The position numbers were made by a program, and so were the translations under genes. Below the pieces are notes generated by a model. That model did no database searches. It saw only the letters and a list, made by a program, of their open reading frames with translations, and was not told the DNA's origin. From an uncultured delta proteobacterium (GTDB lineage: Bacteria > Desulfobacterota > Syntrophia > Syntrophales > UBA2185): a stretch of DNA of 28,104 nucleotides. Shown here in pieces: positions 1 to 27,885 of the stretch. Position 1 is the stretch's first letter, and each line of letters begins with the position of its first letter. Where the stretch lies: assembly GCA_963729715.1 (NCBI GenBank), contig CAVSPA010000013.1, forward strand, positions 1 through 28,104, written 5' to 3'.

Positions 1-873
1 TCCGAGGGGCCTACCCTCATCTCCTGGTTGGGTAGAGTCGAGGCGCGGACCGGACTTCGTATGATGCCGACGTTTCCTCGTCCCCCCCGCTCATTCCGTA
101 CGGCGGGTTTTCCCCGATACGGCTGGAAGGCTCGCTTTCAAGTGGGACCTTCCCTGACTGTTTCCAGCTTAAGTTTGCTCCCGACATACGCTCGTTCCGG
201 CCTGGTTTGTCACCACCCTTAGTGTACCAATCAAGTCCGCCCTCTTTTCCTGCTCAGTGTCAGGTCGACGCCTTCTTGATACACCGCCTTGGAGGGTAAT
301 AAGCCCTCCGCCCCAGGGGTCCTCGCTCTGGTCCGGGTTATGCTGTCCCGGTCCGTCATCACTTAATCGACCCCCTCCGCCCCTCTCGCAGGCACATCGC
401 GTCTTCGCCACCTTTGTGACTTATGCTCGATGTCTTCGCTGTGCGGGGCGCCTAGGCGACCCGCGAGAGGTTCCGAGCTTTTGCTGTTCATTCCTTCCTA
501 ACATGCCATCCTCTTCAACCCCGGGGAGTTCAGTCATCGTTCTTGTCCAATATTTCGATGCCGACATGGGCCTTCGCCAAGCTGCAAACGGCTCGGCACT
601 CCCGATATTCCCGCCATCCGTTTCACGCGGGGCCACATTTCGGGGCTTCTCTGGTTCGCTCTTGCTACGGCCTGCTAGGTTGCTCGTCCCCCTGGACGGA
701 TCAAACTAGGACTCTCCCAGCCTCCGGGGACTTTTACTTCCAGGCTTTCGATGAGTTGGTCACCCTTCTCATCGCTGGATATAACTACGGCAGTCATTGG
801 ACCCCTCTGCCGGCGGGACTTTCACCCGCTGGAATAACAGCTAGCCTCGCTGCACTGCAGCCTCGTGGCGCAC
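1..873 (-). mobile_element. Outer group II intron, 5' part only; interrupted by the inner intron and running off the window edge
   Basis: Canonical GTGCG 5' end at 873 (GTGCGCCACGAGGCTGCA, 873-856). It resumes after the inner intron as CAGGAGATGAGGGTAGGCCCCTCGGA (26-1), which resembles a domain I stem-loop. Confidence 0.72.
27..855 (-). mobile_element. ORF-less group II intron (inner intron, about 829 nt)
   Basis: The minus strand starts GTGCAGCG at 855. Domain V CAGCCGTATCGGGGAAAACCCGCCGTACGGAATG lies at about 125-92 with the AGC triad. A domain VI-like stem ends CTCTACCCAAC at 27. The EBS1 hairpin GCCG-TTTGCAGCT-TGGC is at 592-576. No RT/maturase ORF in the ORF track. Confidence 0.88.
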
Positions 874-897
874 TTACGATATCGAAATAAAAAATCC

Positions 898-926
898 TTG
901 ACATAATTGTTTAGGTATATGCTTAA
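898..926 (+). promoter_or_regulatory. Probable sigma70 promoter with ArsR-type operator
   Basis: TTGACA at 898-903, then an imperfect palindrome TTAGGTATATGCTTAA (911-926) just upstream of the ArsR gene. Confidence 0.55.
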
Positions 927-961
927 TTGATTAAGGAATGTGGAATGTAAGTACGGAAGCA

Positions 962-1435
962 ATGACGATGGAACCTGTCCAGATTTTTAAAACCCTAGCG
1001 GATGAGACGCGGTTCAAGCTGATCAAGCTGTTGCTGACCCATGACCTTTGCGTGGGGGCCCTGGCAAAGCACCTGAGCATATCGGAAGCGGCCGTTTCCC
1101 AACATTTGAAATTTTTGCGGAAAGCGGAATTGGTCAGGGGGGAAAAGCGGGGCTATTGGACCCATTACACGGTGGAAAGGGAGAAGCTGCACGAGCTGGC
1201 CGGACTCCTTGGAGAATTGACCGATCTGCAGCCATGTCCCGAAAGCGTTTGTATCAAAAAACTAAATAACAAAATCGATTGTCACAAGGAGGAAGAAAAA
1301 ATGTGCGACTGCAAGTGTCAGTATCCGGAGAAGTTGAAAGGGAAACCTGAGGAGTGCACCCTTGAGCAAATCAAGGAATGCCACGGGGACACGGAACATC
1401 CTTGCGTGGACAAAAAGGAAAAGAAAAAAGAGTAG
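962..1435 (+). CDS. ArsR/SmtB family transcriptional regulator with Cys/His-rich C-terminal extension
   Basis: FKTLADETRFKLIKLL..LCVGALA..ISEAAVSQHLKFLRKAELV..EKRG winged-helix signature. Start uncertain (938, 962 or 968). Confidence 0.9.
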   Translation: MTMEPVQIFKTLADETRFKLIKLLLTHDLCVGALAKHLSISEAAVSQHLKFLRKAELVRGEKRGYWTHYTVEREKLHELAGLLGELTDLQPCPESVCIKKLNNKIDCHKEEEKMCDCKCQYPEKLKGKPEECTLEQIKECHGDTEHPCVDKKEKKKE

Positions 1436-26663: not shown

Positions 26664-27761
26664 ATGAAAAAAATAATATTTTTTGTCACTGTTACATACT
26701 TGTTTGTATTGTCCCCATTGTCTGCGGATTCTTGCACGGTGTTTCGACTAAAAGCCAACGACGGATCGATCATTGTCGGGCGTTCAATGGAGTTTGCTGT
26801 TGATATGAAATACGATGTCATCGTGGTACCGAGAAATAAAGCCTATGTGAGTCCCGCCCCTGATGGAAAAGATGGTTTATCCTGGAAAACACGTTACGGT
26901 TACGTCGGGATTGGATCATTCGGAATGGAGTATGGCTTATCAGACGGAATAAATGAAAAAGGACTTGCAGTCGGTTTACTTTGGTTTGAATCTGACATGA
27001 AATGGCAGGATGTTACCCCCCGCGAGAGGAAACGCGCCCTCGCCCAAATTATGGTTGGAGATTGGATTCTGGGCAACTTTGTAAGTGTGGATGATGTAAA
27101 GCGAGAAATCCAGAAATTGAAAGTCTTCAAATACACGGACCCAAAAACAAAAATATCCCCGAGCGTACATTTTATCGTTTATGACGCAAATGGCGGTTGT
27201 ATCGTTATTGAGTATGAAGACGGCATGTGCAACATCTATGACAATCCCCTCGGCATTATGACGAATGCTCCCAGATTTCCCTGGCAGTTAACGAACCTGC
27301 GTCAGTATGTCGGTATGTCGAGTGAAATGCCGGGATCCTACCAGTTGTCGGGATTAACATTTTCAACAACAGGCCATGGGTCGGGAATGTTTGGTCTTCC
27401 CGGCGACCTTACTCCACCGAGCAGATTCGTCCGTCTCGCTGTTTTAACCAGGTTTTCCGATATACAACCGGACGCCGAAAGAACGCTTAATCTTGCCCAG
27501 CATGTCATCAATACGTTTGAAATCCCCTTCGGTTTGGTAACCGATACAATGCCGGACAAAAAAACTATTCTTAAGGAATCCACGCAGTGGGTCACCTTTC
27601 GGGATCTCACAAAACGTATTCTTTACTTCAAAACATACGATAACCAGAATCTCCGGAAAATCGATATGAATAAGATTGATTTCTCAGGAACATCGGTGAA
27701 GCGGATTCCGCTGTTCGGAACATCTGAGATTATTGTGGATGTCACTGATCAAGGGCGTTGA
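26664..27761 (+). CDS. Secreted choloylglycine hydrolase / penicillin V acylase family Ntn-hydrolase
   Basis: Signal peptide then nucleophile Cys (ADS|CTVF). GRSMEF, DGINEKGL, TNAP.F.W..NL, GLPGD.TPPSRFVR. Confidence 0.92.
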   Translation: MKKIIFFVTVTYLFVLSPLSADSCTVFRLKANDGSIIVGRSMEFAVDMKYDVIVVPRNKAYVSPAPDGKDGLSWKTRYGYVGIGSFGMEYGLSDGINEKGLAVGLLWFESDMKWQDVTPRERKRALAQIMVGDWILGNFVSVDDVKREIQKLKVFKYTDPKTKISPSVHFIVYDANGGCIVIEYEDGMCNIYDNPLGIMTNAPRFPWQLTNLRQYVGMSSEMPGSYQLSGLTFSTTGHGSGMFGLPGDLTPPSRFVRLAVLTRFSDIQPDAERTLNLAQHVINTFEIPFGLVTDTMPDKKTILKESTQWVTFRDLTKRILYFKTYDNQNLRKIDMNKIDFSGTSVKRIPLFGTSEIIVDVTDQGR

Positions 27762-27780
27762 ATTGACCAAATGAGCGAAC

Positions 27781-27826
27781 GGGGAGATAGGTAACAGACT
27801 GTTCTGGGTACATGGGTAACACTTTT
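27781..27826. mobile_element. IS481-like terminal remnant
   Basis: Tandem imperfect repeats AGATAGGTAACA (27785-27796) and ACATGGGTAACA (27810-27821) followed by CTTTT, resembling IS481-family subterminal repeats as I recall them. No transposase present. Confidence 0.4.
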
Positions 27827-27834
27827 ATGTGAAC

Positions 27835-27885
27835 GCCTAACAAAATCAATACAACCGATCGCTGCGCTCCGGGCGGTGAGTTACT
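27835..27885 (+). repeat. Degenerate attC site
   Basis: GCCTAAC-AAAATCAATAC..CGCTGCGCTC..GGTGAG. The right-hand R' box is degraded. Confidence 0.5.

Follow-up and report, generated by a model that had tools for sequence, protein, structure and literature searches.

Two group II intron 5' ends lie 18 nucleotides (nt) apart on one strand of a bacterial contig end: does one intron sit inside another, and if so, how did it get there? The window, as we call the whole stretch analyzed, comprises 28,104 nt from an uncultured delta proteobacterium of the Syntrophales (GenBank assembly GCA_963729715.1, contig CAVSPA010000013.1; G000:C13:1-28104 in our notation, where G000 is the genome and position 1 is the contig end). 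On its minus strand, the two 5' ends are GTGCG at 873-869 and GTGCAG at 855-850, and the element opened by the second terminates with ...CCCAAC at 27. A first-pass annotation made from the letters alone had proposed a twintron from these coordinates, all of which proved accurate: an intron devoid of an open reading frame (ORF), homing into domain I of another intron and borrowing a maturase in trans. It became clear that the inner element (27-855, minus strand) is very probably a structurally complete, ORF-less, IIB-like group II intron, inserted into an intron encoding a reverse transcriptase (RT) by retrohoming guided by its exon-binding sites (EBS).

The boundaries of the insertion can be read directly from the genome. 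With a caret marking each junction, the minus-strand letters of the window run ...TATCGTAA^GTGCGCCACGAGGCTGCA^GTGCAGCGAGGCTAGC ... CGACTCTACCCAAC^CAGGAGATGAGGGTAGGCCCCTCGGA. When window positions 1-900 were searched against G000, the 829-nt part was single-copy, and a locus on contig C5 matched window 888-856, breaking off exactly at the proposed insertion point; the C5 empty site reads ...ACGTAA^GTGCGCCACGAGGCTGCA^CAAGAGATGAGGGTAGGTCCCTCGAAGCC... The uninterrupted form GTG(C/T)GCCACGAGGCTGCA^CAAGAGATGAGGG is present on C5, C3, C4 and C1, that is, in all four G000 copies of the outer intron with a readable 5' end, which supplies the uninterrupted alleles that the first-pass annotation had called for. 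Because the letters differ on both flanks and empty-site copies exist in the same genome, the insertion is unambiguously 855..27, between nt 18 and 19 of the outer intron. This arrangement might be mimicked by one intron that contains an internal repeat, or by a mis-assembly, and the feature does touch the contig end; yet the window contains both junctions, which agree with the empty-site copies at every base, and the same 5' junction recurs in two other genome assemblies and several metagenome contigs. An artefact would require one error common to all these independent assemblies; it is already contradicted and hardly credible.

To place the inner element among its relatives, a 22-base pattern of the EBS1-loop scaffold, with the six EBS1 letters left free, was run on public collections. 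It returned 56 loci (3 genome records and 53 metagenome contigs), or 57 with the window; by title, the genome records are two metagenome-assembled genomes (MAGs) of Syntrophales and one of Terriglobales, and the metagenomes are from peat and soil. This family reveals how the insertion site is recognized. EBS1 (UGCAGC) of the window member is the exact reverse complement of GCTGCA (861-856), the last six nt before the intron, as the first-pass annotation had noticed, and the pairing is maintained by covariation while the bases adjoining EBS1 are invariant. A recognizable 5' end was available at 39 of the 57 loci, giving 23 distinct combinations of flank and EBS1; the 18 loci left out have no 5' end in the available DNA or within 320 nt, and L021 (6/6 paired) and L036 (5/6) were set aside for flanks shorter than 14 nt. 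Across the 23 junctions, 135 of 138 positions are paired (6/6 in 20 junctions, 5/6 in 3), compared with 72.8 ± 6.1 in shuffles, none of which (0/2000) reached the observed value. EBS2, the six bases 3' of a conserved CGAAA, pairs with the flank at about -16 to -8: 117 of 132 positions in 22 representatives, against 89.7 ± 4.4 in shuffles for which the best offset was picked in the same way (0/2000 reach it). EBS3 was identified as the only alignment column that complements the first 3'-exon base, which it does in 24 of the 25 distinct full-length members. The corresponding intron-binding sites (IBS) in the window are IBS1, GCUGCA at 861..856 (outer nt 13-18), IBS2, GCCACG at 869..864 (outer nt 5-10), and IBS3, outer nt 19; the whole recognized target, GCCACGAGGCUGCA^C at the insertion point, is thus confined to outer nt 5-19.

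The inner intron has the complete architecture of a group II ribozyme (Table 1). It gives the sole Rfam match above the gathering score in the entire 28-kb window, RF02003 (group-II-D1D4-4; 81.7 bits, E 1.1e-16, gathering score 49), at 831..660 on the minus strand, which answers the Rfam check suggested at first pass; it also matches RF02005 at 50.5 bits. Full-length copies were recovered at 32 of the 57 loci, and the consensus fold built on the 25 distinct ones has six domains, high pairing and double-sided changes in most helices. The family is ORF-less throughout, as first proposed for the window member: all 25 measure 792-966 nt and are therefore too short for an RT, and blastx of the inner element against intron RTs found no ORF remnant (best E 0.17). 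Group II introns usually begin with GUGYG and end with AY; the inner element has GUGCA, which agrees at four of five positions, and AC, and its family begins with GUGCAGC, or UUGCAGC in a few members. The candidate branch point, a bulged A that in group II introns stands 7-8 nt before the 3' splice site, is here an unpaired A (inner nt 823, window 33) at a distance of 7 nt. Judged from its letters, the intron is IIB-like because EBS3 lies in domain I and pairs with the first 3'-exon base, and not at the delta position beside EBS1.

Table 1. Features of the twintron at the start of the window, listed in minus-strand order
Feature	Position	Strand	Evidence
5' exon of outer intron (..TTTCGATATCGTAA)	874..890	-	comparison of five 5' flanks
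Outer group II intron nt 1-18, 5' splice site GUGCG	856..873	-	same 18 nt open the C5 and C3 copies; C4 and C1 have GTGTG
Inner ORF-less group II intron, 829 nt, GUGCAGCGAGG...CUCUACCCAAC	27..855	-	exact insertion relative to empty-site copies; RF02003; six-domain consensus fold
Domain I (inner nt 7-382)	474..849	-	closing helix 7-13/377-382 paired in 149/150 cells; 3 pairs with double changes; RF02003 core 831..660
EBS2 (UGUGGC)	632..637	-	pairs with outer nt 5-10 (GCCACG), one G-U; family covariation
EBS1 (UGCAGC), in an 11-nt hairpin loop	581..586	-	complements the 6 nt before the intron; family covariation
EBS3 (G), inner nt 340	516..516	-	pairs with C26 (IBS3), first 3'-exon base
Domain II	379..473	-	helix 383-397/463-477 paired in 314/325 cells; 5 pairs with double changes
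Domain III	316..374	-	helices 482-487/535-540 and 502-509/519-526
Domain IV, about 188 nt, without ORF	127..314	-	closing helix 542-546/725-729 paired in 124/125 cells
Domain V, AGC triad 124..122, 2-nt CC bulge	93..124	-	helices 734-739/755-760 (148/150) and 740-743/749-752 (97/100), compensatory changes
Domain VI	30..88	-	helix 768-780/813-826 paired in 237/248 cells; 6 pairs with double changes
Outer intron nt 19-44, resuming past the insertion	1..26	-	aligned with CAAGAGATGAGGGTAGGTCCCTCGAA of uninterrupted copies, 3 differences from C5

The outer intron is visible in the window as 18 + 26 nt; its nature was read in the sibling copies, which combine ribozyme domains with an RT/maturase ORF. 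The C5 copy is a full group II intron of about 1.83 kb, scoring 124 bits for an RF01999 domain I and 52 bits for RF00029 (domains V/VI), with an ORF of 438 amino acids that carries RVT_1 and GIIM domains and for which no endonuclease family was reported. Two further full copies lie on C3 and C4, the frame of the latter being open for 253 amino acids only, and an ORF-deleted derivative of about 630 nt (C1:21518-22145, plus strand; 89% identical to the full copies) retains domain I and domains V/VI (RF00029, 45.8 bits). Within the window, positions 18..1 give a partial RF01999 match of 13.9 bits, below threshold, and the first outer hairpin (GAGGG..CCCUC) is kept in the 44 visible nt. A 3' part of an outer intron at a contig end (C4:704960..704219, 87% identical) might belong to the window copy; outer nt 45-1130 were found at no contig end of G000. 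In a consensus fold of the four G000 copies, outer nt 6-10/322-326 and 14-24/309-319 are paired, and IBS2 and IBS1 of the inner intron coincide with the 5' strands of these two predicted helices. The insertion site is thereby predicted to fall inside the basal domain I helix (nt 14-24/309-319), which bears out the first-pass proposal of homing into domain I. The surroundings of the sibling copies hold two further features. At C4:226650-226760, a copy of a second RT-encoding intron family of G000, family X, ends 17 nt before an outer-family copy, the two introns standing in tandem with one transcription direction. Just downstream of the C5 copy (~27730-27850) lies a repeat of about 125 nt, 73-92% identical to matches at 15 or more places of the genome, on C3, C4, C6, C8, C9 and C18.

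Taken together, we propose that EBS-guided reverse splicing placed the inner intron between outer nt 18 and 19. The insertion would interrupt the basal domain I helix in its 5' strand, and the inner intron would therefore have to be removed before the outer ribozyme could fold, as the predicted helix and what is known of twintrons (in parts of the review PMC4424553) suggest. A conserved part of a mobile intron would, as a target, offer a renewable homing site. Both mobility and splicing of the inner intron would require an RT/maturase supplied in trans.

Is the inner intron itself the mobile unit? Among 60 related genomes, the inner element was found in two, both of the same genus (2/10 there, 0/50 elsewhere): G003, with 99% identity to the window copy, and G001, with 89%. 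The same junction, ..GCCA(C/T)GAGGCTGCA^, occurs in the window, G003, G001 and metagenome locus L061, each time with a different 5' exon, and the genes flanking the window, G003 and G001 copies are non-syntenic. The window and G003 copies of the inner intron show 9 mismatches in 829 positions, against 7 in the 26 positions of the adjacent outer flank (73% identical; Fisher p ~1e-7); flanking genes of the two species are ~79-87% identical. An inner intron that is 99% identical next to an outer flank that is 73% identical points to recent, independent homing of the inner intron. The twintron might instead have spread as a composite unit, mobilized by the intron-encoded protein (IEP) of the outer intron, with an inner intron that does not home itself. 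Such a route is named as a possibility for twintrons in the portion of Mohr et al. 2010 (PMC2882425) available to us, and outer-type 5' ends are present in all four contexts, with homing-site-like 5' exons in two. The disparity between inner and outer identity speaks against it, however, as do the 301 genomes of the order, in which 20 genomes hold an empty target (40 sites) against three with the occupied junction, and the family members with other EBS sequences, which occupy other sites matching their own EBS. We consider composite spread very improbable.

Several observations weigh against the reading of a structurally complete intron inserted by EBS-guided retrohoming, and the first concern its structure. 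The domain V/VI model RF00029 is silent on the inner intron, both in window 1-1000 and in 1-220, at E up to 10, while the positive control scored 52 bits. Of the features expected in domain V, a hairpin of roughly 34 nt, the AGC triad and the 2-nt bulge are present. The base of the helix, however, is usually GGUU; here it is GGAAU, so that the triad G stands opposite A instead of U, and this deviation accounts for the miss. Silence of the model was considered as a sign that domain V is absent, and this was rejected: the family alignment shows the domain, with compensatory changes such as CCGUAC/GUACGG to CCGGAC/GUCCGG, in keeping with the domains V and VI recognized at first pass. The deviant base is a family trait, since GGAAU occurs in 18 of 28 distinct 3' tails (GGUU in 4, other variants in 3, domain V further upstream in 3). 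One junction, at L063, pairs at only 1 of 6 positions with its EBS1; another family copy contributes, with its 3' end, the 5' flank of L063, a genuine exception that was kept out of the 23-junction count. Finally, the prediction of a helix at the insertion site draws on four outer copies that are too alike for covariation and show a single one-sided change (G-U to G-C).

The remaining objections concern the state of the outer intron and the source of the protein. In both relatives readable past the junction, what is left of the outer intron is a relic, truncated or with an internal deletion: in G003 it stops 67 diverged nt after the insertion, and in G001 the sequence 3' of the insertion passes abruptly into the outer RT region, has a stop, and then ends. 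The window outer copy may be a relic too. All GIIM hits of G000 come from either the outer family (Y) or family X (a 473-amino-acid frame in four copies: C3, C4 twice, C12), the two intron families of this genome in which an RT frame is open. The RTs found beside other members of the inner family in metagenome loci form one group, with 48-74% pairwise identity, to which the X and Y RTs are only 33-43% identical. The assembly of G000 contains no intact IEP of this host-RT group, the one that accompanies most members of the family; its only representative, at C4:534426..533416, is a dead copy, short of about 70 residues at the N-terminus and not preceded by a domain I. This truncated RT, part of an intron fragment (C4:533333-534426, minus strand) missed by the GIIM scan, is 60% identical to the host RT of L073 and is followed by domains V/VI (RF00029, 32 bits, below cut-off). 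No GIIM hit was obtained in G003, the carrier of the 99% identical copy; G001 has one. MAG assemblies often lose repeated introns, for which reason a missing IEP is weak evidence. As to the borrowed maturase of the first-pass annotation, the mobility of the inner intron suggests a trans-acting IEP, but no intact candidate from the host-RT group is present in the G000 assembly.

Two further alternatives were weighed. On the first, the inner intron would need no protein in vivo, self-splicing without a maturase. It is compact, highly paired and free of any ORF remnant, with no related intact IEP in G000 and no GIIM hit in G003, and such behavior has been proposed for C.te.I1 of Clostridium tetani, the sole bacterial case according to the part of the review available (PMC4424553). 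Insertion into new DNA sites, however, needs reverse transcription, which implies that an RT was at hand when the intron moved, and the absent IEP carries little weight in a MAG. We regard protein independence as unlikely. The second alternative accepts the same insertion history and adds that the outer intron breaks off somewhere past the contig end; both introns would have ceased to splice, leaving decaying mobile-element debris. The broken outer copies of G003 and G001, the small domain I deletions and domain V mismatch of the G001 inner copy, the want of an intact cognate IEP in G000, and the ORF-less, decayed state of the other RF02003-type nested elements of that genome all agree with it. 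Yet every helix and all three guide pairings are intact in the window copy, the 99% identical copy that another species carries, at a site not syntenic with the window, indicates recent activity, and the first hairpin persists in the 44 visible outer nt. That the locus is a dead relic today is a substantial possibility, although not the one we favor.

Public sequencing records were also consulted. None of the runs contained as much as half of the sampled words, an RNA joint across 27-855 was not among the joints listed for the sequencing-run records, and no record spans either junction with at least 31 letters per side. An RNA-library contig (284-877) and a DNA contig (347-878) extend no more than 22-23 nt across the 5' junction, and these records do not cover window 894-1222. 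RNA-library contigs do contain inner-element sequence, which does not show transcription. A DNA joint 26->856, which skips 829 nt with a side of 24, was considered as a trace of splicing and rejected, as it corresponds to the empty-site form of the repeated outer intron.

The immediate surroundings of the twintron are intergenic. The gene of an ArsR-family helix-turn-helix regulator (PF01022, E 7e-14) with a cysteine-rich C-terminal tail occupies window 968-1435 on the plus strand, starting about 95 nt away from the outer 5' end. Because the site is intergenic, upstream of this gene and divergent from it, the consequence of the locus for the host is probably small. The 5' exon of the window resembles the ..TTCAAT..GTAA common to other outer-copy sites, and positions 874..890 would contain IBS2 and IBS1 of the outer intron. 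The 5' junction itself (window 849-862, minus strand) forms a near-perfect palindrome, GCUGCA-G-UGCAGC, and the EBS1 of the window member is identical to the conserved intron nt 2-7 of its family; as written, IBS1 could in principle pair with the inner intron's own 5' end as well as with EBS1.

How general is the nesting? The family displays 20 EBS1 types, and for eight of them a same-strand position in a host group II intron is clear. Besides TGCAGC, the window case at outer nt 18/19, types AGGCTC and GGGGAT lie immediately upstream of an RF02005 core that is followed by an RT ORF; AGCCCC and GCTCCT lie between an RF02005 core and an RT ORF; GACGAC lies between an RF02003 core and an RT ORF; CAGACC and CAGATC come after an RT ORF and are separated by 2 nt from the textbook domain V hairpin that precedes them. 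Four further types have another intron element in their locus. One of these, L070, shows the reverse nesting: the family member (oriented positions 253-1641) is cut after ~120 nt by a ~670-nt insert with an RF01999-type domain I (90 bits), and a further RF02003 element (100 bits) follows downstream. The other 8 of the 20 types gave no evidence of a host intron in their short flanks (up to 1.5 kb, E up to 0.001), and nine loci of the flank scan had no Rfam hit at all.

G000 contains two more nested arrangements, at C18:44000-44900 and C3:266936-269100 (L010-L013). In these, the domain V of one ORF-less RF02003-type element is followed immediately by the start of a second element of this type (GTGTGTCCAGCGAAGG...); all are without an intact ORF, and the one on C3 retains a short N-terminal RT remnant.

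A broader reading of the family would see in the inner element one member of a lineage, overlooked so far and actively mobile, whose compact introns (~0.8 kb, ORF-less, group II) parasitize other group II introns. Changes in EBS1, EBS2 and EBS3 would retarget the members of this lineage to conserved ribozyme sites, namely the basal domain I helix, a position just 5' of the RF02005 core, the interval from domain I to the RT ORF, and a point 2 nt after domain V, in hosts that match three or more domain I models; an RT supplied by the host would be needed, and the deviant domain V together with the lack of an ORF would hide the lineage from both RT-based and domain V-based surveys. We judge this reading to be evenly poised between right and wrong.

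Nested group II introns have precedents, and the comparison is instructive. Twintrons are known in bacteria and archaea: four in Thermosynechococcus elongatus, nested arrays in Methanosarcina acetivorans and a domain I insertion in Trichodesmium (PMC4424553, PMC2882425 and PMC4649490, each in part). The closest parallel is found in T. elongatus, where ORF-less TeI3 introns (family F3) reside in TeI4 introns (family F1), as described in the available portions of Mohr, Ghanem & Lambowitz 2010 (PMC2882425). In both systems, an ORF-less inner intron with good EBS/IBS pairing occupies a conserved site of an RT-encoding intron, and retargeting proceeds by EBS changes; near-identical inner copies in diverged outer copies were read by Mohr et al. 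as recent independent insertions, in the same portions. As with TeI3, several independent insertions with matched EBS/IBS were found here (four contexts for the TGCAGC type, 23 junctions in the family). A trans-acting 'driver' IEP is proposed in both systems and was demonstrated in T. elongatus. The two systems differ as follows, to the extent covered by those portions: inner and outer introns there derive from one ancestor, whereas the window combines an RF02003-type inner with an RF01999-type outer intron; the T. elongatus site is in domain IV, between two ATGs of the ORF, leaving the core intact, whereas the window site (nt 18/19) falls in the predicted basal domain I helix; G000 has no related intact IEP; and the T. 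elongatus introns are from a single genome, whereas the window family spans peat and soil metagenomes and MAGs of Syntrophales and Terriglobales.

The other two precedents share individual traits with the window twintron. In T. erythraeum Tery_4732, an inner intron with an atypical domain V lies in the host domain I, as here; in the available part of Pfreundt & Hess 2015 (PMC4649490), however, each of the two introns has an IEP ORF, a conserved protein gene is interrupted by the twintron and its sequential splicing was shown in vivo, whereas the window's inner intron is ORF-less, its locus is intergenic and its splicing order is a prediction. M. acetivorans, as far as parts of PMC4424553 describe it, displays repeated, site-specific and intergenic homing into group II introns, including ORF-less ones, with a perpetual homing site. 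The proposed mechanism is the same as in known twintrons; what differs is the domain I model of the host, the site in the basal domain I helix, the deviant domain V and the broad environmental family. Homing in M. acetivorans reportedly goes into related intron ORFs, if the title of Dai & Zimmerly 2003 is taken at its word, in contrast to the sites of the window family, which are parts of the ribozyme (domain I nt 18/19 and, in other members, 2 nt after the host domain V). No description of the family was found in a literature search that did not extend to Dai & Zimmerly 2003 or Simon et al. 2008.

Bacterial twintrons and trans-mobilized ORF-less introns are known but few. In the part of the review available to us, ORF-less introns are described as rare in bacteria, with few probably overlooked unless their domain V differs from known ones (PMC4424553); the inner-intron family has exactly such a deviant domain V. 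If the parasite-of-introns reading is true, bacteria would harbor ORF-less introns more often than present accounts state. The family also provides a natural data set on the retargeting of group II introns, presents a case of one intron exploiting an intron of a different structural class, and raises the testable question of how specific intron maturases are.

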